Shown: one piece after another, positions 1,524 through 60,471 of the stretch
How the letters are laid out: each line of letters opens with the position of its first letter
Position numbering within the stretch: position 1 is the stretch's first letter
Source of the DNA: Rhynchopus sp. YZ270_cl-10
Taxonomy: Eukaryota
NCBI GenBank assembly: GCA_964035575.1
Contig: OZ037845.1
Coordinates: forward strand, 1,674,001 to 1,738,000
DNA: 64,000 nt
Direction: 5' to 3'
Notes under the pieces: generated by a model
The model's database searches: none
The model's input: the letters and a program-made list of their open reading frames with translations, nothing else
What the model was told of the DNA's origin: nothing
Made by a program: the position numbers and the translations under genes

Positions 1524-4500
1524 ATGAGCAAGGCTAAGATACAGGCCGTGGCAAGCATCGCCTTGTCGAAGAGGGGCTCCAACGTGAACGATGCCCCAGA
1601 GCTGTCAGGGGAGGGGCGCTACCATGAGCTTACGCGGCAGCTGCAGAACCTTGTGATAGACAAGGCCGCGAAGAAGTCGCTGCCGCTGCTGGAGGAGCTG
1701 GTGGTGCTGGACAAGCATGCAAGCCCGCAGCTGATGCCGGTGCTGAAGGACATCATGCGGTGTGAGAAGGCGGGCGTGCATGAGTTCCTTCCTGTCCTGA
1801 TGTGGCGAGCGTTTTCCACACAGCGCGACGCCTTTGTGGAGGGGCGCTCCTTCGAGGCTGCGGTCAAGGCGGCAACGGAGTTTTGCTGCGACGTCGACAC
1901 GCCCGACGCACGCCGTACAGGGTTCCTCTGCGTGCTCATGCACTGCATCATGCAGCAGACATCGGAGCTGCCACTCCTCCTTGACATCCCCAACGCCTTC
2001 GTCGGTGTCCTTATGTCCTCCCTGCGCACCTTCGTTGACCACAAGATGAACGAAAAGCGCGGCTTCGCCACAAAAACCTCGTGGCACGAAGACAAAAAGT
2101 CGCGTCTCATGGCACACCTCTCTGCACTCTCGCTCTGCGCAAAGCTCTTCATGACGCACGTCTTCCCCTTCGCAAGCATGCAGACGAAGCCGCAGCACAG
2201 CGTCTCCAGTCTAGTCGATACACTCACCCTGACTGCCACGGAGTACAGCTACAAGGCAAAGGACATCCCTGCCGTGCGGCAGAGCTTGACGTGTCTCACG
2301 CAGATCGCCGAAGTTGCACCGGAGGCAGTTGTGAACTGCGTTGGCGTGCATCTGCCCTCTGACATGTCGCACGTCCTCGCGCAGGTGCCCTTTCCGAAGA
2401 AAGACTCCAAGGCAAAAGACAAGAAGGCGACCCTCCCATGCTGGGACCCGCTAGCGGCAAGCGGCATTGCGAAGCTGTGCCTTGCAGTGCTGCACAAGCA
2501 AGGGGAGGCGAGTGCCAGTAGGAGTCCGTTCATGCGGTGTCTGAACCTGCTCTGCCACCACTCGCACCACCTTGTGTTTTCGGACATTGTGATGGGGATT
2601 GTGAAGCGCAATGGGATGTACTACATCCTGCAGAGGGAGGACGCCGTGTATGGCTCCAAGGACCGTCTCGTGGACTACACTGTGGACCGTGTGCAGAGCA
2701 TGCTTAAGTCCGACCACGTGACGTGCAGCACGGGGCTCAGGCTTGCGTCTGCACTGTCGGAGCAACACCTGCGCAACGCCGCCACATCGACGTCCACAGT
2801 GCTGAGCCTGCGTCCCTCTGTGAAGGCACTCCTAGAGCGCTTCCACCACGACCCCTTCATCGTGCAGCTTGGCCTCAAGGCGCTCATCTGGCTCACCGCC
2901 GTGCAGCTGGCAAGCACCACCGACGCAGGCACAGAGAGCAAGCCTGCGGTAGTGCGCGACCTGCTGCGGGTCTTGATAGAGCTTACCGCGAATGTGCCCA
3001 TCAACTCTGAGCAGACGCTTGACTTTCTGAAGTATGTCTATTTTTGTTGTACTGTGTGTACTCTGCGTTTATGTCTGCACTATTTGTGCGTTCGCCTTTA
3101 CTCCTAACACAACCCCTGCAGATGTCTCGTACGCGCCATGAAGCTCCTCCCTGCCCATGGCGAACGTGCCCTCCTCATCCCTGCCTTCACCGGTGCAGTG
3201 GGCTACCTCACACAGCGCTGCACGCGCAAGATGAGTGTCTCCGGTCTGTACGGCCTGCTGCAGGAGTTCCTCCTGCAGGTCGACATCGTGAAGGCGCTGG
3301 AGAAGGAGGAGCGGGGTGTGCCTGTGCACGCGGCACTGGACATCGATGCTGTGCCGCATCAGCGCTCCAATGGGGGGACACATACACTGGGGTTTATGCT
3401 GGATATGCTGGACGGGTCGGTTTCGCATGAAGTGGCGGCGGCAGAACAGGTACGACACTACACTACACTACATGACTTACCCATCTCCAACACCACATAC
3501 ACACACAGGCAATGTGCCTCCAAGAAAGCGACGTCTCTGCCGACACACGTGTGAAGTACAGCAAGCTCCTCATCGAAGCCCTCCGCTTTGTAGGTGACTT
3601 CGGAAACGTCATCGTGAATGGCAAAGACAGCGACGTGCACAGCAGCATGATGCTGCTGCTGGTGCGTCTGCAGGCGTTGATGTGCAGCCAGCCGCACCAC
3701 GTTGTGTGGGAAGCTGCCCTTGCGACACTGAAGCTGTGCGGACGTTCGCACGCGGCAGTGCGGGTGAAGGTGTACGCCATCCTGTCTGGCACAATCCGCT
3801 TGCGTGAGGAGATGCACAGCATGCTGCAGCCACTGCTGTCGGTGGCAGACATGACCATGCAGCTGCACGAGGCTTTCGAGGCAGCACAGGTCAACATGGC
3901 AGAGGACAGTGCACTGAGTATGGCTCTTTTACCCCATCAGAAGAAGAAAAAATCCTTCCAAACTGCATTGCCTTGGTTCCTTGGCTGGACTACTTCGGTG
4001 TTCTTCTGAGGCTATCCTCTTTGCTAGAAATGTTTCAGTATTACAACCAAAGCTCCTGTCGTGGGTGAGCCACAGGGTTGCAGCTCCGACCTGCCTCGAT
4101 GCCCCTGGAAGGCTCAATCGCGGGTGCAAGATTTGTCACGAGCAACTTCACTGTTAAGAGTTGCCCAGCTTCGTTGCTCAAGTTCTTTCTTCCTACACAC
4201 CCCACCTTCAACCCTCGACCCTTTAACCTGTACAGTCAACGCTGACGCAGTCGCAGAGGCGTTCTACCTGCAGCACGAAGCCCTCAAGCAGCACCTCGCT
4301 GTCTACGTCAAGTTTGCTGAGTTTCGCAACATCCGTCTGCTTGGGAGTGTTGCAGAGGTATGCTAGCGTGGCCTAGAGAAGGGGGCCTTAGCAAAGAGCA
4401 CATTATTCAGACCCAATTTTATTTTTTCTTCAAAACTTCACACACAACGCTTTTGGTTTTTGGGAGACACAAGGTGCGGGGTTCTATGATGTGCACGGAA

Positions 4501-8215: not shown

Positions 8216-8343
8216 CACTAATGGTGGCAGTATTGCGATGGGTGCTCATTGGAATACATCAAAATACATCAAAATACACGTGTATTTTGATGTATTTTGC
8301 GTATTCCAATGGGCTCCCATCACAATACTGTCCACCATTAGTG
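8216..8343. mobile_element. CACTA-ended fold-back MITE (128-bp near-perfect palindrome), 2-bp TSD TC
   Basis: Starts CACTAATGGTGG and ends CCACCATTAGTG. The whole element is an inverted repeat centred on ...AATACA-CG-TGTATT.... TC lies on both flanks (8214-8215 and 8344-8345). Confidence 0.8.
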
Positions 8344-8962: not shown

Positions 8963-9538
8963 ATGATACGACGAACGTGCGCACGCCTGACCCAGCAGCC
9001 GTCCCGACGCTATCAACGGCCACAGTGGGTGCAGCCTGCCAATGTCCCGGTGATCAACCATATCAGCATGACGGTTATCACACCGAATGAGCTGGAGAAG
9101 GCTGGGGTGCGTGCTGTGCCTGAGGGGTGGCTGGTGAGTGCGCAGAGGGGTGATGTGCGTGCAGTGGCAGAGGCGGTAAGGGCGAATTGGGGGAAGTGGC
9201 TTGCAGCGTGCGGTGTGGTTGGGTTGGCGTGGGTATGGCAGTCGGCTGCGCTTGCACGGTGTGAGGCATTGGTGGAGGGGCATGTGTCCAGCGCGACGTC
9301 TCTCATGATCGACACAGAAAAGTGCGTCCACTGCGCAGCCCGCAACTGGACCACACGTACCGCCCCTATTGACAGTAGAATTGCTAGCATCGAAGCAGAG
9401 AGGGGACAACAGGCCATCAAGCTTTCAATGCTCACAGCGGCACTCAGAGACTCCCTCATCGCAACGCAGCAGTGGCAGCTCAGACAAAAGCAAAATGAGG
9501 CGAGGCTGGCCCTCCAAGCTGAAGAGAAGCGCGTCTGA
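8963..9538 (+). CDS. Small hypothetical protein, probable mitochondrial presequence, one hydrophobic segment and a C-terminal coiled coil
   Basis: Intronless ORF starting MIRRTCARLT (euglenozoan-type presequence). Hydrophobic WLAACGVVGLAWVW. GC-rich island within AT-rich flanks. Confidence 0.7.
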   Translation: MIRRTCARLTQQPSRRYQRPQWVQPANVPVINHISMTVITPNELEKAGVRAVPEGWLVSAQRGDVRAVAEAVRANWGKWLAACGVVGLAWVWQSAALARCEALVEGHVSSATSLMIDTEKCVHCAARNWTTRTAPIDSRIASIEAERGQQAIKLSMLTAALRDSLIATQQWQLRQKQNEARLALQAEEKRV

Positions 9539-10513
9539 ATTATTTTTACTTCAATCATTAGACGACTCTGTACAAGAACATCAGATTTGTCGATACCAAA
9601 AAAAACCCCGTTGAGGGAGGAAAAAACTCACAAAAAATAGTGCTGTTTTTTGCGATAAAAACCAAGCATTTTTCAGGGCACATCAGGAGAGAGAGAGAGG
9701 TGGCAGATCCAGATTTTTTTTTTGATGCATGCTTTGGCATGCGTTTGAGTTTTCAACCTTCTATTTAAAGATGTGTGGGCACATAAGGTACGCACATCTT
9801 ACAAGTTTTCCTTTTATTTTTGTCATTATCAGATCCCTCTTTAGTCATAAGAGGAGGATTCCCTGGGAGGGAGGGAGGGAGGGGAGGGAAGAACAACACA
9901 GAGAGGCGCGTGACTTTCCTTAGAGTCGTATTTGTCTCTGTTGTGCAAGGTGTGTTGAAAAGAAAGATTCTTTTGCAGGGAAGAATGGTGATACTATCTG
10001 GTATCACTACAAATTATCAAAAAAAAGGGGGTGAAATATAGTGTAAGACTGTCCAAATGACAGCTAAAAAACACTAAACAGAATATCAAAAAAACTTCCC
10101 TCTTTGGTGTACTGACACCACACTAAATCAATCATATGTGCTGTTTTGTTTAATTTACTTCAACGTCGTGCACCAGTGGGTAGGGGGAGGGGCCCGGGGA
10201 GGGGGGGACAGGATTATCCCACAACTTTATATTAAAAGGTGTCGCGGATGTGTGGGGATGTGATGAGGGTGGTGATGTGTTTGTTTAAAGATGTATCGTT
10301 TTTGAACGTCCTTTGTGTGGTTTCTCTTTGAATGTAACGTAGATGAAAATGATAAGGTGACTAAGCACAAGAGGTGAGCTACGATCATCCGAAAATATAA
10401 AACAAGTTTTTTTTGAACATGATCCACTTTTATTTTTGCAATTTTGATTTTTTCATTCTTTTACAATGTAGGTTTCGAAAACTGTCTGGGCCTTGAGCGA
10501 CAGCGGAACACTA

Positions 10514-10604
10514 ACTACAAGTCCACAGAGGGTCATGCACTGATGAAGTCCACCTCTGTTTACAACTAATGTATGCGTTTAGGACTGAAACATGGACTTG
10601 TGGT
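10514..10604 (+). ncRNA. Candidate hammerhead ribozyme with non-circularly permuted (pseudoknotted) topology
   Basis: CTGATGA 10540-10546; stem II AGTCC 10547-10551/GGACT 10582-10586; GAAA 10587-10590; stem III ATGT 10569-10572/ACAT 10590-10593; GUA cleavage triplet 10571-10573; stem I ATGCA 10535-10539/TGCGT 10574-10578. Extra helices 10525-10531/10553-10559 and 10514-10524/10594-10604. Confidence 0.7.
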
Positions 10605-11254
10605 ACAGATGTACCACCCTACAAAAACTTTTGAATATGCATATTTACAAAAAAACAAAAACAAAACAAAAAGGATCCAAAAATACAACAAAAAAGATTG
10701 ATGAATAACCAATGTTCAAAACATTAAGTAATCTAATCAGACTAAGCACAAGAGGCTTAGGTTCATCTCATAAACCATTTTTTTATTTTTTTTTTTGATT
10801 TGACTGAAACAGCGTTCCACAAGGTTCCTGTGTGACGTTGTGTATTGTTATTTTTTTTTTTGTTGATTTTTTTTTTTTTTTGTATAATCTCAACCATTTC
10901 CCCTCTGCAATTCAGAGGGTGAGTTAAGTGTACCGAATATCGAACACATCAATATGGTGGGTTGCTGTCGACTACGGGAAGTTTTTCTTTTTTTTCTTTT
11001 CTTTCGAATAATTCGTGTGGTGGCAACGGTGCCGTGTTGTATCAGCACTGCACTGTTCCTTTTTGGGTTTGAACCCAATACCAATACCGGGATGTAGGAC
11101 TGCATGGTTGGGTATCCACCCCCCCGGTATAGCCGGTCATACCAAGGTACACTGTTCACGAGAGGGCTTTGTATTGCAGGTCAACTTCTTTTCCCTTTTC
11201 CCCTTCCCCCCATTGTATAAACAGGCGTCTTTTGTGTGCACGACAGTTTTTTTT

Positions 11255-11288
11255 AGGTGACTAAGTACGTGAGGCTTAGGTTCATCTT
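11255..11288 (+). repeat. Dispersed GNRA hairpin, family A (AGGTGA-CTAAG(C/T)-A-C[GNRA]G-GCTTAG-GT-TCATCTT)
   Basis: Representative copy with GTGA loop. Related copies near 10354, 10740, 11859, 21046, 21674, 21981, 22247, 25746, 25851, 25910, 27308, 27596, 35549. Confidence 0.85.
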
Positions 11289-12957
11289 ACGTTTTCATTG
11301 TGGAGAGTCATAATTGAGCTTGAGGACCGCCGGCATCTTTCAGACCACAACCCCGCATGTTGTTCATGTGTAAGCTATTTGACATTGCAGTCAGGCCTTT
11401 TGGCAAGTCTGAGACAGTCTCGCTTCACCAAAGGGATGTGTTCTGTGCAAAGAAAACAAGGCGATATTCTCCTTCAAAAGCGTTTTTCAGCACTTTCAAG
11501 CTTGTACTCTCTCAACAGGCGCCACATGTTTTCTTTCCCCTTTTTTTTCGTTTTGGTATTCCGTTTTTTCCGTTTTGTTGGGTCATATTCATAGGGGATA
11601 TGGAGGTGTTTTTTTTGTAACTCAGGCAGCATTCGCTCGTTACCTACCTGTCCAAGATGGGAACTGCTGCCAGGTGTTTTATCACATTCGAACGTTTATT
11701 TTTTTTTTTTTTTGAAGGTGTTATGCGAAACCCTTGCGAAATTCATTCGACACTTAACGTTTTCATTTTTTTCAACTGAAATGCGTTTTAGCACGTTTCA
11801 ATTGTCTAACTTCACTTATTTTGGTGCATTTTTTTAGGGAACACTTCAGAACCCCTTCAAGGTGACTAAGCACACGAGGCTGAGGCTCATCTTACAAACT
11901 ATTCTCTTCATCAAAGGGAACTCTGAAGAAATGAATAAACACATGTGGATGTGTGGGGAACGTTCGTCTTCGCAGTCCAGCCATACCGTCAGGCTATTAC
12001 GCCTGGGCTTGGAAAGGACACAATGGGCACTTTGAACCAGAAAACCGATTTTTTTTTTTTTTCAGAAAGTGGCTGAGCACAGGATGCTTAGACAACTTTC
12101 CTTTGTTTCCTTTTAAACGTCATAAAGGTGCCCTTTATGTGGAGAGATCATCTAGCCAGGGTGCACCGGTTTTATTCCTATTGAGAGAGAAAACCTTTTT
12201 TAGATGTGCACACGAGAGGCACACTTCATCATTCCAAGTTTCCTTTTGTGCGCAATCATCCCTTTTAGATGGGACACCCTTTTCCACCAGTGTCCAAGCA
12301 TGAGGCTGGTTCATCTTATCAACCCCTTTCGGCACAAAAAATGATGTGTTTCCCCTGTACAATTCCTCATTTTCACTTAGCCATCTGTCTTCCCACCATC
12401 CCTACCCACCCCACCCTCCTCGCCTTCCCAGCAAAACAGTGCGGGGGGGTTGATTACGTCGTGTTTGGGAGAGAGATTGTACCTTATTAGGGCATTTTGC
12501 TGTAACACCTATGTTTTCATTGTATTCATAGCTACCAAAAAAAAAGGAAAAAATGTGCACCTGAATGCATAAACAAATAAAAGCTACTTTCCAGAGTTTG
12601 AGGACGCATATCTGTTAAGTGCAATAGCCTTCGGGCGATATTGAGTACAGATCCTGTTATTAGCAGCTGATTGTCGACACAACAACAAATGGGGACCAAA
12701 CAGTCGGTGCTCGGAGTGTCAGTGCCCTGCGTCCCAGAGGCGTTTTGCACTGACTCAACTTCACCTTTTTTTTCATTGGTCTGATTGTGTGCTCACCATC
12801 TAAACGTCAATGAAGTGATTTTGTTTTTGGGATTACTTTTTTTGGGTGTATTTTTACAGTCCTTTCAAACTGATATCATTTTTGTTGGGACTACATTTTT
12901 TTTTTTTTTTGCCAAATCTGTTGATTTAGCGAGTCTTCTTTCGCTTTTTTCCCCCCA

Positions 12958-13636
12958 CACCATGGACTCGTAATGACATTACGCGCGTCATGACGAGGTA
13001 ATTACGAGTGCCTTGACGAGGGCACCCCCTCGTAATTACGAGGGGGTGCCCTCGTCATGACGAGGTAATTACGAGGGCACCCCCTCGTAATTACCACGTC
13101 ACGACGTCGTCATGACGTGGGCACCCACGACAAGGCGATTTTTGACCAATAAAAAAAAATTTTTTTTTTCAAAAATCGGGCGTGGTAGGTCATAAAGTGG
13201 CCCAAAAAATCCAAAGAAAACCTCAGATTGACCAAATGGTGAAAAAAAATGTCAAGTCAAATTTCAGCCAAAATACGGTCATTAGACCCCCACAGATGCT
13301 TAAAAGTGCCAAATTTTGCTTTTAATGGCCTCAAATCGTCGAAATTAGCCCTATATAGGGGCCAAAAAAAAAAATTCGAGAGTCCCTTTCCCTGGGAGGC
13401 AATAGCCAGACAATGACCACGGGAGCACCCCTCGTAATTACGAGGGGTGCCCTCGTAATTACGAGGGCACCCCTCGTCATGACGTCGTAATGCCGTCGTC
13501 GTGACGAGGGAAACCTCACGTCATGACGTCGTCATTACGAGGGGGTGCCCGCGTCGTGACGACGTCATTGCGCGCGTAATTTCCCACGTAATTTCCCTCG
13601 TCCCTCGTCACGTAATGTCATTACGAGTCCATGGTG
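12958..13636. mobile_element. Non-autonomous TIR element with CAC termini (CMC/CACTA-like), 2-bp TSD CA, dense subterminal repeats
   Basis: 26-bp TIR CACCATGGACTCGTAATGACATTACG and its reverse complement at 13611-13636. Many TAATTACGAGGG/CCCTCGTAATTA and TCATGACG subterminal repeats. CA lies on both flanks. Confidence 0.85.
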
Positions 13637-21072: not shown

Positions 21073-22598
21073 GAGAATTTGGGGGGTCCATCTCATGTAC
21101 CAAAGGTACACTGTCACAAGAGAGGGCTTTATGTATTTCAAGTCAAACCTTTTTTAAAGCACAACAACTACCATTTTTCTCTCTACAGCTCGTACGCCCC
21201 GTCTCGCCGAAGTAGAAGATATTTTTTGTCAAAAAAATACAGCAAAAATAAAACGTAGAACGATCGGTGTTTAGCGATCGGTTTGGGCTGGTGAAGATAA
21301 CTAAGCGTTGCGAGGACACCTTGCAAAGCCCCCTTCTTTTTTGCTCTTTTGTATTAGATTTTTTATTTTAGTGTAATGTGCATTCATTTTTTTAGAAACC
21401 CCGTGTACAACTGTGCAGCTTTCTTTTTTATCTTTTCCCGCAAACCTTCCAAAATGCAAAAATAGCGTATTGAAGGAATTATGGAAAAAAAAAAGCAAAA
21501 CATTCAATGAATCTCGGAAACTTCCTTGAGCCACACACCCCTCCAAACATTTCGCAAAAAAACCCCCTTTATTATTCCACCTTTTTCGTTTTTTTTATTT
21601 GCTTTTTTTGTATAAACGGCTTTCCTTCCACAAATGTGTTTCCCCCCATCTCCCCCTTTTATTGAGTAAAATTACTAAGCACGAGAGGCTTAGGGTCGAT
21701 CTATAAACTTTTCTTTTCTTGGGTTGTTGTTGTTGTTTTTTATACACTTCCCTAATGCTTTCAAATTTTATTTGAAAGTATATGAATTTGTTTCTTGGCA
21801 CTTTTCTCTCTATTCTCTTCTCTTCTCTTGTCGTCACAGCAATGTCCAAATAGAACTATCGTTGCTTTTTTTGAGTCCCCCCTTATAGATAGGATATCCA
21901 AGCCCCCTGAGAATCCCCCCTAGGCCCAAGTGTTCCACACAAGATATGTGGATTGAGACAACGGGTGTTTTTCCCCCTCTAGGTGACTAAAGCACTATTG
22001 CTAAAAGGATCATCTTTACAAAAAAAAAAAAAATTATTTTTCGACGACGTTTTGCGCAGAGTGTATTTGTCTCTTGCGAAGTCCTTCCCGTCCCTGCCCG
22101 CTTCTTTGATAACAAAGAAGGGATTGGTATATGTTAAACGGTTTGTTCTGTTGTTTTTTTTCTCTTTCTTTTTCGCTCCTTTCTCTTTGCATTCTTTTTG
22201 TTTCGCTAAGAAAAGAATGTCTATGAATTAACCCTTTCTGAGTTTCAAGGTGACTAAGCAGGGGCTTAGGATAATTTTTATTTTACTGTTGAGGGGGGTT
22301 TGATCCTGACGTCAATTATGACACAAAGAGAAAAGAAAAGAAAGCAGCTGCGCACCATACCTTCACACTCCCCGCGCCCCCCCGCAGTTCTTTGCAATTA
22401 ATGTACTCTGCCTGGCAGCCAATTCCAGTCTTTTCATAGCCCATTTCTTCCCCCTCTATGTTTATATGTTTTATTTGTTAAATCGGGGGGGTATATTTGT
22501 TCTCCCAACCCAATCCACACAAAAAAAAAAACTCCCAAAAAAAAAACCAACCATTTGTTCTAGAACTAACAAAAAACCAAAAAAATAGTACATGACCT

Positions 22599-26710: not shown

Positions 26711-27366
26711 AACAGCTTATCAAAGAAAAAAAAGAAAAACGACCCTTCATACGTAGGTGTTGAAAAACCATTACCAATCTGACCTCATTTCACATAACGA
26801 AAAAAAAGGTTCTTGCCCTTTGGGCACAAAACAAATATTTTTTGTTTTTTTTGCATATCAACTTCCTGACAGGAAATAGAAAGTGACAGAGAAGAGGTGA
26901 GTTCTTACAAGTTTGTCTGCTTGTTTGTTTTTAATCTGCTTCAGAAAAAAACGCAGCAACTTGTAGAGCATAAAACAACCCCTGTTTTCATCCTTTTTAT
27001 TTCCTCCAACTCAGTACTTTTCGGTTCGCTTAGACTGCAAAGTATATGAATCAGTCTGAATGTCAGGCTCAATATTATTTTTTTGTACACAACAATTCAG
27101 CGCAACACCAGCAACGCAATATACGAACTGAAATTGTTACCCCCCCTGCCACCCTACCCCCACCCAACCCTGCATTATCTTTTTCCATGTTTCTGTGTCG
27201 CACTGTGGGCTTCAAAGGGAAGGCATCTCTTGCCCCTTGGCAGTTCCTAGCCTCTCATCTCAAATGACATTCTCTGGGTTGATCATCTTACAGGTTTGCG
27301 TTCTTTCAAGGTGACTCAGTGCAAAGTGTAGTTGAGGCTTAGGTTCATCTTACTGAACAATTCTTT

Positions 27367-27408
27367 AGGTACACTGTCACGAGAGGGCTTTGTATTTGAA
27401 ATCAACTT
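27367..27408 (+). repeat. Dispersed GNRA hairpin, family C (GGTACA-CT-GTC-A-C[GAGA]G-GGC-TT-TGTATT...TCAACTT)
   Basis: Related copies at 11144-11187 and 21103-21150. Same loop as families A and B. Confidence 0.75.
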
Positions 27409-28491: not shown

Positions 28492-31021
28492 TAGGCCTCC
28501 CCAAAATCGTCTACCCCAAAAATAAAAGACATAAAAGACATAAAAGACGTATAAAAGACATAAAAGACATATAAAAGACGTAAAAGACATATAAAAGACC
28601 ATGGTGGTATACATGCACTCGTAGAGGTCACTGGCTGGAGGGGAACAGTGGAGAAGGGTACAAATGGGTTTTTCTGACGTTTTTGATATTTTTGCTTCTG
28701 ATCTTGATTTTTTGGTTTTTTTTTTTCCCTTGTAGAGAGGGTAAACAGTGGCTATTTTTGCCTGCTCTTTATCTTGTCATGCAAACACGTGCTTACAGCA
28801 CTCATCTTGTGCAAACGCTGGATATCCAGGCACTCGCGGCCGTCACTGATTCTTCCCATCATGGAGAAGAACCTCTCCTGGTTGGCCGAGTGCGGAACTA
28901 TGCGACAGTATTTCACTCCCAGCGCTGGAAGTGACGTGCCTCTCATCAGCTTAGCTGCAATTCTCCACCAATCTTCAGGCTGTCGTGAGGAAAATAGAAG
29001 GAAGTGTTTATTTTTGATCACATACGTTCTTCTGTTTGGCATTAGCCCACATGCTGGTGCTCTGGTACTTGCCCTCTTTGGTCATGAAGTCGACCAGCTC
29101 CTGCTCCGCTTGCTCTCCCCCAAGGGTCTTCACTGCTTTCTCAGCTTTGTTCAGGTACTCAGCAGGGTCGAAGAGTTTCAAGAAGGGGGTCAGCAACGAC
29201 GGTTCTTTCACTTCTTGTTCGATGTAGAGGCTGGGGTGGAGAATCATGGCGGTCAGGCAGACGGGGCAGTTCTCGTAGCGGGTTTTGCGTTTGTCAAGTG
29301 ACTCTACTACCGTGTCGAACTTCTCTTGCAACGTGGGGGGCACCGTCAGTGTGTTGAAGTACTTCTTCATCGCCCACCAGCACGGAATCACCTGTCCCAG
29401 CCTTGCCTCATCGCCCTCTAGCATCAGGATTAGCGCATTCACAGGCTTCAACAGTTTTAGGGTAAAATGGAATTCCTGGAAGAACCCCATGTCGTCGAAA
29501 AGCCTCGTGATTTGAGGATATTGCCTCTTGAGGGATGCCTCCTCGGGGTCGTCGTTGATGGCGCGCAACACCTCGATGTTCCCTGCAATGTCCTCGAACG
29601 CGGTGCAGGTCGTCAACCAGCGGACATCCATGGGTGCATGGGGAAGTCCCTTGTTGGTGGAGTTCAACTCCACTTGTTTCTTCAGGTACGTTTTACGAAA
29701 TGATTCCGTATTCCTGATAGCGGAGATCATTGCGTGTACCCACTCCGACACGTGTGTAAAGGGCATCTTTACAGGCTTTTTGTTCTTCTGCCTGAACCCG
29801 ATTGTGTCGTTTAAAAAACGATTGGCACAATGACACACGCACAAAATACACACAATCCCGTTCGCCTCGGCCCACTGTTTCGCTGCTGACCACACATTCG
29901 AGCCCCCATCAACCACCACAGCCACCCATTTGACCCCTGTCCTCTCCGACCCTACTTTCTGGAAGTATGTAAGCAGGATGGCGGCGGTGAAGCTCTTCTC
30001 CTCCATTGTCGCCGTCTCAAGGTTGAGGCGCCACGGAGCTGTTGCGGTAAACGAGATCACATGGTCTTTGTTGTGCCGTGACAACCAAGCATCGGCGTGG
30101 AGGACGACGTATTCCTCCTTTTCGAGCTGCTGAATGAGGGGGGTGACTTCTTCGTCGTACACGGCATTCAGCAACGAGTCTCGCAACATGTCATCGGTCG
30201 CAATGTGTCTCACCGTCCCCCGCAATTCACGGACAAAATCTTTAAAAAAAGGGTTGCGGGTTTGGTTGAACGGAATATTTCCGGAGAACCACCAGCGCGC
30301 TTGCGCCATGTCGATGCGCGTCTGCTGTGTGGCGGTTGTTGCAGGAGAGACGTGAAGCAACGACTGACGCTGTCTTTTGGGAAGAGGAGGAGCGGGAACT
30401 AAATCGGAGGTCTGAGTTCTTGGGGGTTCTGTGAGGTTGGATGAAGGCAGCACTGGCTCATCCGCATCGATCACGGTAGGTGGTGCTGGTGGTTCTTCCC
30501 CTGGCACTGGGTTGGCAGCTGTGACTTCGTTCCCCTGCGCTGGAGCAGCTTCCTCGTCGTCGTCGTCGTCCTCTGCGTCGGCTTCATCCCTCTTCCTCTT
30601 CCTCTTCCTCTCCAGTGCCGCAAGCTCGTCCTTCGCTCTCTTCTTCTGCGCGTCCGTAGCTTGCTCGCAATGCAAAATGTGACCTTTCCTGCGTTCAGCG
30701 TTTGAAGATTTACCCATAGTGTCTCCGCACTCGCACTCTAGCTTCCCCGAGACAATCTTCAACAGATCCCCAGTCCAACATTTTGCCTTCGGCATCTTTT
30801 TTTCTTTTTTTTATTTAATGTTCCTCAATAAACCTTCTGTGGTGTGAAATGAAGTGTGGGGTTGGGGTTGGGGTTAGGGTGGTGTTCTGCAGCTTACGTC
30901 AAAACAATGTCTTTTATGTCTTTTATGTCTTTTATCCCCAAAAACCCAGATTTTAAAAGACATTAAAAGACGTAAAAGACGTAAAAGACGTCTTTTATAT
31001 AAAAGACGTTGGGGAGGCCTA
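28492..31021 (-). mobile_element. Autonomous hAT DNA transposon, 2530 bp
   Basis: 13-bp perfect TIR TAGGCCTCCCCAA. 8-bp TSD GAGTGCCT at 28484-28491 and 31022-31029. Arrays of TAAAAGAC(A/G) subterminal repeats at both ends. Encodes a transposase. Confidence 0.95.
28752..30795 (-). CDS. hAT transposase (665 aa after splicing)
   Basis: Exons 30795-29026 and 28979-28752 with a 46-nt GTATG...ACAG intron. N-terminal C2HC finger, VLHADAW (D), VVVDGGSN (D), CVCH, RW, WW, SANQERFFS (E) hAT motifs. Confidence 0.92.
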
Positions 31022-57343: not shown

Positions 57344-60020
57344 ATGATGCTTCGGAGAGTAGCGAGGGCTGCTGCCACACAGGGGGCACGCCGCCATGTG
57401 GCCAACACCTCTGTATGTACCTCTGTCTGGTAGCTTGAACACTGCCTGCCATTTGCTTGTTATTCACCCCATTTTTACGACAGTCGCTGTTCCGTGCACC
57501 GCACGTCCGCGAAGTGCCTGAGAGAGGCGAGTCGGGAGGTCCCTCCGAAGTGTGGGAGACGTCCGCACCGATCTCCATTGAGGAGAGGAAGTCGCTTGAT
57601 GAGTTGCCGCACATCCAGGTATGACCGACACCGTACCACCACGCCACCACACACAACGCAGGAGCACGAGAACGACAAGGCAGCGTTCGTGATGCTCCAC
57701 GTGCCCGGACAGGAGATCGTGATGGGGTCGTACCACCCCTGTGGTGCACTGTTTGAGTGCACCATCAGTCTGAACCGTGCACGGGACTGCATCAGGCGGT
57801 TAAGGGAGCTCCTCGAGTCCGAGGGTGTGCCCGTGCGCAGTCTGGGAGAGGTCATGCGCATGGGACACTTCAGTGAGGACCGTGACCACCTCAAGCAGAT
57901 GGCCTCGAACTCCCTCACCTACTCCGTGCAGGAGAAGGATGAGCCCCACCTACAGGGCGAGGAGCTCCGCCTCACCAGCGAGGAGTACAAGAACGACGTT
58001 GTCGGAGGACTTGACGTCCGCGATTTGGTATGGAACAAAATAGGGGGTTGCCACACAATGCGTATTACAGGTTGACGTGGTCGTGACGCAGCCCACCGTC
58101 TACCTTGCAAAGAGCGGGAACAACACACCCCTTCAGTCGACTGGATACCGTTTCGAGCCGCTCTCCAACTTGGTATGTAGTCGGCATTTCCCTCCCCATT
58201 ACTTTTTTACTACCTTTTTACTAATTCTTCCCACAAAAATCACAGATCTTTACACGTGACCAGATGATTGTCACCGGACGTGGTGCCGTTCTGGCGAACC
58301 TCAACTCTGCACAGCGTGCACCTGAGGTCAACGTTGTGGAGTTCTGCCTGAAGAAGCTTGGCATCGAGGTCATTGGACACATCGAAGCGCCGGGCACGCT
58401 GGAAGGTGGTGACTTCTTCCCTGCGGGACGCGACCTGTGCTTCATTGGCATGGGCATCCGCACGAACGACTTCGCCATCCAGCACATGATGAAGAAGGAT
58501 ATGTTCGGGACCCGTCGTGTTGCCGTTGTGGCAGACTTGTTCGACAGAAACCAGGCACGCATGCACCTCGACTGCGTCGCCAACATTGCAAGCGACAACT
58601 GCTTCGTTGTGCGTGAGTCCATCCTCGGAAGGCTCAACCCCAAGCGTCGTGTTGTGACTGAGTACACAAAGACCGAAACCGGCAGCTACGAGATCAGTGT
58701 CGACGGCATGGAGTTTGGTGAGTACCTTGCGCTGAACGGGTGGAACGTGATCCCCGCCTCTGAGCAGATGGCAGACGACCTGGGCATCAACTTCATCAAC
58801 ATGGGTGAGGGACAGCTCATCTGCACTGACTCGGCCATGGCAGAGACCATTGAATCGTCCCCGCACTTCGAAGGCAAGGTGCACGTTCTTGACTACCGTG
58901 AGATCTGCAAGATGTACGGTGCCATCCACTGCACCACACAGGTGTTCAGAAAGGCACGCGCAAACTCGGACCAGCCCTCCACAGGTGTTATGCCTGCATA
59001 CAAGGCGCTGGTTGACACGACACACGTGAACGTGCACCACATCCCCGACGAGCACTCGCAGACGACGAACAACGTCCTCCTTGTTGCCCCGACGCAGTTC
59101 GGGCAGAACAACGAGACACTCTCCGACAACGACTTCATGAGCAGAGACAAGCGCTTTGCCCGCCACACCGACATCGACATCATCACCGCCGCCTGCGAGG
59201 AGTTCGAAGGTCTCTACAGCGGCCTCATCCGTGCGGGTGTCGGCATCAAGCTGTACCACCACGAACCCTACCACGGCACACCGGACGCATGCTTCCCCAA
59301 CAACTGGTTCTCCACACACAAGACTGAGAACGGGTCGGACCTTGTTCTGTACCCCATGGCACACCAGAGCAGAAGGAGGGAGAGACGCCCCGACATCCTG
59401 AAGTTCCTGAAGAGCCGCACCGACAACGTGTGCGACCTGACTGACCACGAGGACGACTACCGCTACCTGGAGGGCACAGGGAGCATGGTGCTCGACAGGA
59501 CACACCGCATCGCGTACGCAATCATCTCGTCGCGCACGAACCTTGAGGTGCTGAACAACTTCTGCACACGCATGGGATACACCGCACACCCGCTGTACAC
59601 GAAGGAGGGTGTCAACATGTACCACACGAACGTTATGATGAGTGTTGGAACCCACTTCGCGGTTATCTGCTTCGAATACCTGAGGAGTGCAGAGGACGTT
59701 ATGAAGCTGCAGAAGACCCTCAAGTCGACAGGAAAGAGCGTTGTGCCGATCTCTGCAGCACAGTGCGCGGACATGTGCGGAAACGTGCTCGAGCTGCGCG
59801 GCTCTGAGGACTCCTTCATTGCAATGTCCGACCGCGCATACAGAAACTACCGCCCCGAGCAGCTGTACACCCTCCTTCAGACGGTGGACCACATTGTGCA
59901 CCCCCAGTACGACACGATTGAAACGGTATGCAGCAAAAGCAACAACCCAAAAATAAAATATCCACACACACACAGCTTGCTGGTGGGAGCATCCGTTGCT
60001 CCATCGCTGAGCTCTTCTGA
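57344..60020 (+). CDS. Mitochondrion-targeted arginine deiminase fused to a CtlX-like (citrulline hydrolase/amidinotransferase) domain
   Basis: MMLRRVARAAA presequence. ADI motifs NLIFTRD, LEGGD, MHLD, YGAIHC. Second domain PDACFPNNWFS, LEGTGS, YHTNV, GGSIRC. Exons 57344-57412, 57484-57618, 57662-58027, 58071-58172, 58246-59925, 59976-60020. Confidence 0.88.
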
Positions 60021-60471
60021 ACGTAAAAGACGACCCCCTTTTTTTTGTTGCGCCGTTCTGTGCAAATAGACATGTAATTGTGGCCTTTGAAAAAAGATTA
60101 CCGATTCCCGCAGTCATGCTGTCAACAGCAGTGCTGGGGAGAGGTAGTATGTCCAGAACTGTGCGCGAGCTAAGAGAGCTTTTTATTCACGCCTCGCAGG
60201 GGCTGTTTCAGCAGCCTTGCGATATTTGTTGTTGTGATGTGGCACGTAGGGTGTATTTGAAAATGGGTGTGTATGTGTTCGTTATCATCTCTTTTGTGTC
60301 CTTTATTTTCCAACCGTTTTTATTATCAGCGGCCAACGGCCGTCACCCCCTTCCCCCCCTTCCCTTGTCACTCTAAATGCACACAAACAAACAAAAGTTA
60401 TCACAAAGGCGGATTGTCGCCATACAATTTATCAATGCATCTTGTACTTCAGGGTGAAGGCGCAGGTATTA

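Follow-up and report, generated by a model that had tools for sequence, protein, structure and literature searches.

A type-CSG hammerhead motif in a multi-copy, variably truncated diplonemid repeat, the probable 3' end of a Penelope-like retroelement of the Naiad/Chlamys type

The window, by which we mean the whole 64-kb stretch of DNA that was analysed, holds intron-split genes, a paraflagellar-rod domain and an arginine deiminase. The deiminase gene piece at 58264-60069 has ADI and DDAH-like domains, and its identity is 82% to Rhynchopus euleeides, 72% to Diplonema japonicum and 69% to D. papillatum, which identifies the host, a marine flagellate, as a diplonemid near Rhynchopus. A 680-nt element at 12958-13636 is bounded by terminal inverted repeats of 44 nt, has palindromic repeats of 21-22 nt in its subterminal parts and looks MITE-like, and a 128-nt near-perfect palindrome at 8216-8343 is also MITE-like. 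On the - strand, opposite the gene cluster, lies a 595-aa ORF (29008-30795) with a weak match to DUF659, as in hAT-like transposases. A 35-nt hairpin repeat of very high depth recurs at 10356, 10737, 11256, 11861, 14779, 21047, 21674, 22249, 25853, 25912, 27310-27353 and 35551; strict matches to it number eight in the window, all on the + strand, against 0.16 expected, and the related copy at 11256-90 folds as a hairpin with a z of -1.37. This hairpin may loosely resemble the region of 28S rRNA that is used by R2 elements. A second short repeat of very high depth, at 11090-11200 and with related pieces at 21090-21150 and 27367-27400, is often joined to the hairpin repeat in other contigs.

The motif studied here lies on the + strand at 10514-10604, its closing helix included. 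The original prediction had placed a complete hammerhead core, five helices and a short linker at this site, and when the sequence and the fold were rechecked every coordinate agreed. The core (CUGAnGA, UH and GAAA) is complete, with CTGATGA at 10540-46, the GUA triplet at 10571-73 and GAAA at 10587-90. From 5' to 3', the 5' strand of an outer helix, P0 (10514-10524), is followed by the 5' strand of the stem I-II interaction helix (10525-10531), by block C (10535-10551), which consists of a stem I strand, the CUGAUGA core and a stem II strand, by the 3' strand of the interaction helix (10553-10559), by block S (10569-10578), which consists of a stem III strand, the GUA triplet with the predicted cut at 10573/10574 and a stem I strand, and then, across a 3-nt linker (10579-81) that separates stems I and II, by block G (10582-10593), with a stem II strand, the GAAA core and a stem III strand, and by the 3' strand of P0 (10594-10604). 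Stem I (10535-39/10574-78) has 5 bp including one U-G, stem II (10547-51/10582-86) has 5 bp and opens with an A-U pair, stem III (10569-72/10590-93) has 4 bp including A15.1-U16.1, the interaction helix has 7 bp, and P0 has 11 bp, one of them U-G, and directly continues stem III. A ribozyme active only as a dimer was considered but need not be assumed, since stems I, II and III can each pair in cis. From the computed pairing, the interaction helix would close block C into one loop and stem III would close blocks S and G into a second; the two loops would be joined through stems I and II, which the 3-nt linker would hold next to each other, while P0 would stack on the short stem III and support it.

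When the motif was folded, P0 had a mean pair probability of 0.97 in the 91-nt fold and 0.49 in the whole element, and the interaction helix had one of 0.84. Stems I and III are weak, and the MFE and the ensemble, computed with a program that cannot score pseudoknots such as stems I and II, do not favour stems I-III. The scaffold that includes stem III costs 3.9 kcal/mol relative to the nested minimum, a cost that stems I and II, as pseudoknots, have to recover, and the stability of the nested fold is modest by itself (z of -2.16, with 7 of 200 shuffles equally good). An 8-mer at 10519-26 is repeated at 10546-53 and gives rise to an alternative, off-state helix, 10546-52/10593-99, whose probability is 0.91 when the upstream strands are left out and 0.23 in the whole element. 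These folding results agree with a ribozyme that is slow or gated.

Six orders of the hammerhead blocks were defined by Eckert et al. 2023 (PMC10085705), where C-S-G is named type-CSG, and the non-circular permutation claimed in the original prediction has precisely this published order. Type-CSG comprises only two unique sequences, from soil DNA metagenomes, CSG-1 and CSG-2, for which no host organism is given; both cut in vitro at the predicted site, at 0.004 and 0.026 per min, and the evidence for the type was judged by its discoverers to be weaker than that for type-SGC. The present motif shares with CSG-1/2 the block order, the full core, a short linker that connects stems I and II, the enclosure of blocks S and G by stem III, as in the published alignment, and an interaction helix around block C, equivalent to helix 'I' there, which has 8 bp in CSG-1/2 and 7 bp here. 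The size is also alike, the cut being 48-49 nt from the construct start in CSG-1/2 and 49 nt from 10525 here. The differences are that here a 4-bp stem III is combined with the 11-bp P0, which is not drawn in CSG-1/2, that stem II opens with A-U and not with G-C, that there is a GUA triplet and no relation between the stem sequences, and that no host or element is known for CSG-1/2 whereas here the host lineage can be identified and the insertion is present in tens of copies. Type-SGC (HRIMA-1), also in PMC10085705, likewise has a non-circular order, typically a 3-nt linker between stems I and II and an interaction helix, but its order is S-G-C and it comes from circular-RNA-like contigs of metatranscriptomes. 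By analogy with CSG-1/2 the cut is predicted to fall after A10573, and we think it quite likely that the motif cleaves in vitro.

A structural descriptor that covered all six block orders, with stems I and II of at least 4 bp, stem III of at least 4 bp and the two extra helices not required, matched the 64 kb, both strands included, at the motif site only. Among 300 block-wise dinucleotide shuffles there were 3 matches in any order, 1 in any non-circular order and 0 in the order CSG, and as a control the descriptor, run on 150 viral loci, picked up ordinary hammerheads of types I and III in 6 of them. Rfam gave no match at gathering score within the window, and no ribozyme or snoRNA match at E<=10 in 10200-11400. 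The motif falls outside types I, II and III, with their circular order and three-way junction, its order being CSG and Rfam giving no match. C- and D-like boxes do occur in it (TGATGA at 10541-46 and CTGA at 10585-88), as they would in a box C/D snoRNA, but these boxes are only 48 nt apart, there is no convincing inner C'/D' pair and, as noted, no Rfam snoRNA match. A snoRNA, just as a chance arrangement, would leave the three hammerhead stems and the insertion footprint described below unexplained, and with the absence of CSG from all the shuffles either reading is scarcely credible.

Only one copy of the motif was visible to the original prediction, and this holds for the 64-kb window, in which neither a second nor an inverted copy of the element was found; contig depth in assembled public runs, however, shows a multi-copy repeat. 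In run X1 the contig over 10501-10623 has zero differences and a depth of 4413 compared to 79 in the unique flank, and in run X4 the depth is 7800 over the motif contig and 119 in the flank. The motif contig is thus about 55-65 times deeper than flanking DNA, single-copy contigs having depths of about 65-120, but depth does not equal copy number and we read it only as tens of near-identical copies. The depth grows toward the right end, the values from left to right being 1883, 3243, 3477, 3959, 4413 and 4376 in X1 and 1807, 3393, 3949, 4308 and 4413 in X2. Among the 24 of 44 loose ends that were listed, those from X1 number six, all of them left ends and all different (10405, 10406, 10448, 10474, 10579 and 10594), and all six run 12-15 nt into one motif, GGTGACTAA, of the 35-nt target hairpin; one X4 left end, which is from a diverged copy, is without the target motif. 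Joints from 10374 to 10709 and from 10374 to 10720 resemble still shorter copies. In X6 a 661-nt contig continues beyond the left end.

From the contig depth, the variable left ends and the joints, 10375-10739 on the + strand is read as a 365-nt multi-copy insertion that would be the 3' end of a 5'-truncated retroelement, with an A-rich tract at 10641-10700 in its 3' part. It is preceded by a 16-nt direct repeat at 10359-10374, likely a target-site duplication, which is identical to 10740-55, and is followed at 10740-10768 by this right direct repeat and the remainder of the 35-nt hairpin repeat, which may be target or could alternatively be a Penelope-type tail encoded by the element. Both 16-mers carry A where most contigs read G (10750). 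Both flanks were observed for the window copy alone, and the right end is placed from this copy and the joints. The hammerhead has the sense of the element RNA and is 166 nt from the fixed right end. The traces of target-primed reverse transcription are left ends that differ from copy to copy, a single right end and, at a constant target, a short duplication. The many copies with ragged left ends beside one hairpin, a fixed right end and a likely duplication look like such a footprint of retrotransposition. The 35-nt hairpin repeat is probably the insertion target of the element. That the carrier is a retroelement we regard as very highly probable, and the earlier suggestion that the motif marks one is well supported, since the motif is multi-copy, 5'-truncated, target-specific and between direct repeats. 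Upstream of the element, a multi-copy stretch at about 10290-10358 (depth about 4900 at 10320) stops at the target motif and is possibly a further insertion at the same target. It could also be thought that the host has domesticated the motif for RNA processing, with cleavage of the polycistronic pre-mRNA beyond the ORF that ends at 9538, since it is on the coding strand about 1 kb past the stop codon and each of the window's eight matches to the target motif is on the + strand too. However, it belongs to a set of tens of young, nearly identical insertions whose left ends are ragged, and we consider such a role very unlikely.

The majority copies are identical over 10501-10623, and between 10560 and 10594 the depth is increased by a further set of copies that has diverged. 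Changes are seen in one loose end at 10535, 10544, 10547 and 10552, with the pairing partners outside the displayed part; 10544 is N7, a free core position, and 10552 is unpaired, so that the interaction helix would gain a G-C pair from its change. A different variant copy is changed at 10536, again with the partner outside the displayed part, and one copy seems to lack six core bases. The public runs match the unique flanks almost unchanged (X7 as a small share) and so look like one species, and for this reason they give no cross-species covariation. The helices are kept with other sequences in the metagenome locus L122 and in six Naiad tails, both described below, and there the similarity is in the fold and not in the sequence.

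For most copies a single contig runs across the cut site, where no clear depth step is seen, the step being -1% in X1, +2% in X2, +10% in X4 and +25% in X6, which has low depth. The listed X1 left ends show no surplus of 5' ends at the cut, two of the six lying 5 and 20 nt past it. Since the copies span the cut with little depth step, the template would usually have been uncut. This would also be expected if the motif were inactive or vestigial, carried along by a young repeat while alternative hairpins hold the fold off, and the MFE and the ensemble, which disfavour stems I-III, and the short 4-bp stem III point the same way, while near-identical copies cannot reveal selection. What speaks against a vestigial motif is that the majority sequence keeps all the core bases and the five helices, that the free N7 (10544) and the unpaired 10552 are among the positions seen to change, and that an active Penelope hammerhead likewise has uncut templates as a rule. 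We think it improbable that the motif is vestigial.

The metagenomes were scanned with a pattern of the core plus GTCC/GGAC in stem II, which other CSG members would escape, and among 60 matches the full fold was present in one, L122, and absent from 59. In L122 the stems have 6, 5 and 5 bp, the linker has 3 nt, the interaction helix has 8 bp and an outer helix abuts the short stem III; when the free positions of all 60 matches were shuffled, such a fold was obtained in 8 of 2000 rounds. This hammerhead, at 798-843 on the - strand, is 763 nt downstream of an apparently intact, Naiad-type ORF of 930 aa on the same strand (1606-4398), which has a GIY-YIG-like N-terminal segment, DKA and RT motifs. 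No significant Pfam domain was found in the ORF itself, but its relatives carry GIY-YIG and RVT_1, and near-identical proteins are known from five database sequences. Judged by motifs and similarity, the ORF appears to match the description of Naiads in Craig et al. 2021 (PMC8557442). That paper reports no canonical hammerhead in Naiads and eight 'half-core' cases in which the second half is 35-50 nt away.

When the last ~600 nt of 12 of the 54 consensi in File S5 were inspected by eye, with names assigned from the file order and a choice biased to half-core and nematode families, a complete CSG was seen in six of the 12 tails, namely Parc, 1_Nbra, 2_Nbra, 3_Nbra, Hpol and Smim. In these six, which cover four of the eight half-core families and have different stem sequences, the interaction helix has 9-16 bp, stem I has 5-6, stem II 4-5 and stem III 6-12 bp, and the linker is about 3-5 nt. 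By the same inspection the CSG fold was absent from the Ppac, Asuum, 3_Dst, 4_Dst, Ovul and Esco tails, and the 4_Dst and Ovul tails look like another wiring. The fold was found in none of eight Naiad-like loci from genome contigs, several of which are without the 3' end. Naiad-like retroelement contigs occur in bacterial genome bins (L182-L189), several of them from animal symbionts, and are probably host contamination. Viral scans gave at least 120, 1 and 29 pattern matches, with CSG in 0 of 150, and no Naiad-like locus was found in the viral contigs. The viral loci L190, L192 and L195-L198 have ordinary type I and type III hammerheads with a long loop II.

The repeat is like the Naiads, as described in PMC8557442, in its heavy 5' truncation and its ribozyme-like motif near the 3' end, and it may share their tail features of 30-40 bp if the 35-nt hairpin after its 3' end is a tail and not a target. 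It is unlike them in that Naiads were described from animals and often have (TA)n insertion, whereas here a diplonemid is the host, insertion is at a specific hairpin repeat and no ORF is seen, and in that stem III has 6-12 bp in the Naiad CSG tails and 4 bp here. As with Penelope pLTR hammerheads and animal non-LTR retrozymes in PMC11167929 and bioRxiv 10.64898/2026.07.22.740005, a Penelope-type enzyme would move the repeat and uncut RNA would be inserted. The hammerheads in those elements, however, are of the circular type I, often minimal and in tandem, whereas the one here is non-circular, complete and solitary.

A remnant of RT or GIY-YIG was not found in the 64-kb window or in the truncated copy, and no diplonemid-named protein is among the Naiad-like matches, almost all of which are unnamed. 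The words 'Penelope' and 'GIY-YIG' are absent from the seven supplements of the D. papillatum paper. No sequence homology to L122 or to Naiads was found past the core and stem II, and convergence is therefore possible. An alternative is that the ribozyme is real but its carrier is a site-specific LINE of the RLE clade (R2/SLACS/CRE-like) or the SINE of such a LINE, with CSG gained independently. The strict target motif, the clean duplication of 12-16 nt and the lack of any inverted or tandem copy here would suit such a LINE; many ORFs of D. papillatum are annotated as SLACS, R2 or LINE, and hammerheads may arise repeatedly. Against this, such site-specific LINEs usually carry an HDV-like ribozyme, placed at their 5' end, every retroelement-linked CSG fold found here is in a Naiad 3' region, and site specificity is also known among the Penelope-like elements of spike mosses. 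We think a LINE carrier unlikely, and that a Penelope-type enzyme mobilises the repeat is fairly probable. Taken as a whole, the explanation that we favour, with somewhat less assurance, is that a type-CSG hammerhead predicted to cut after A10573 lies in a multi-copy, variably truncated repeat which probably represents the 3' end of a Penelope-like retroelement of the Naiad/Chlamys type or of a non-autonomous dependant.

If the repeat is of this Penelope-like kind, an endonuclease would nick the 35-nt hairpin target between GGT and GACTAA, and reverse transcription would begin at the fixed 3' end, often stop early and leave the duplication of 12-16 nt. The element RNA would be copied mostly uncut, in which case the ribozyme must be slow or protein-gated. 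It has been reported for a Penelope-like element of Anolis that uncut RNA is used and that the hammerhead cuts only with the element protein and is dispensable for insertion in vitro. The likeliest function is that already proposed for Penelope hammerheads, namely to cut the element RNA from long precursors. In the diplonemid the ribozyme may act where a truncated copy sits upstream of another copy, and the element RNA may be cut out of a host polycistronic read-through transcript; this trimming role is the least supported step, and we would give it a little short of an even chance. A bolder proposal, which we put forward tentatively as a possibility, is that type-CSG is the standard 3' ribozyme of one branch of the Naiad-type Penelope-like elements, from nematodes and a spider to diplonemids, that the repeat is the first Penelope-like element of Euglenozoa and is site-specific for the 35-nt hairpin, and that the motif is a switch in which loss of the upstream strand lets 10593-99 capture the stem II strand and so turns the core off.

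The CSG topology has already been published, and what we have not found in print is its eukaryotic host, its retroelement setting, the outer helix and the link of CSG to Naiads. In the mainly open-access literature that was covered, nothing links CSG to Naiads, retroelements or diplonemids, and CSG is not mentioned in passages of two recent ribozyme papers. A copy in an identifiable eukaryote, a copy in a Naiad-type element and six Naiad consensi would together give type-CSG a biological home, and the 3' end of Naiad-type elements is likely where it normally lives. This would explain why hammerheads are apparently absent from Naiads, as the descriptors that were used assumed a circular order. 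The short stem III with its outer helix would be a new natural scaffold for structural work on ribozymes. The repeat is possibly the first Penelope-like element in Euglenozoa, and one with a defined DNA target, and the function of Penelope hammerheads becomes testable in diplonemids, whose model species, D. papillatum, accepts gene replacement.
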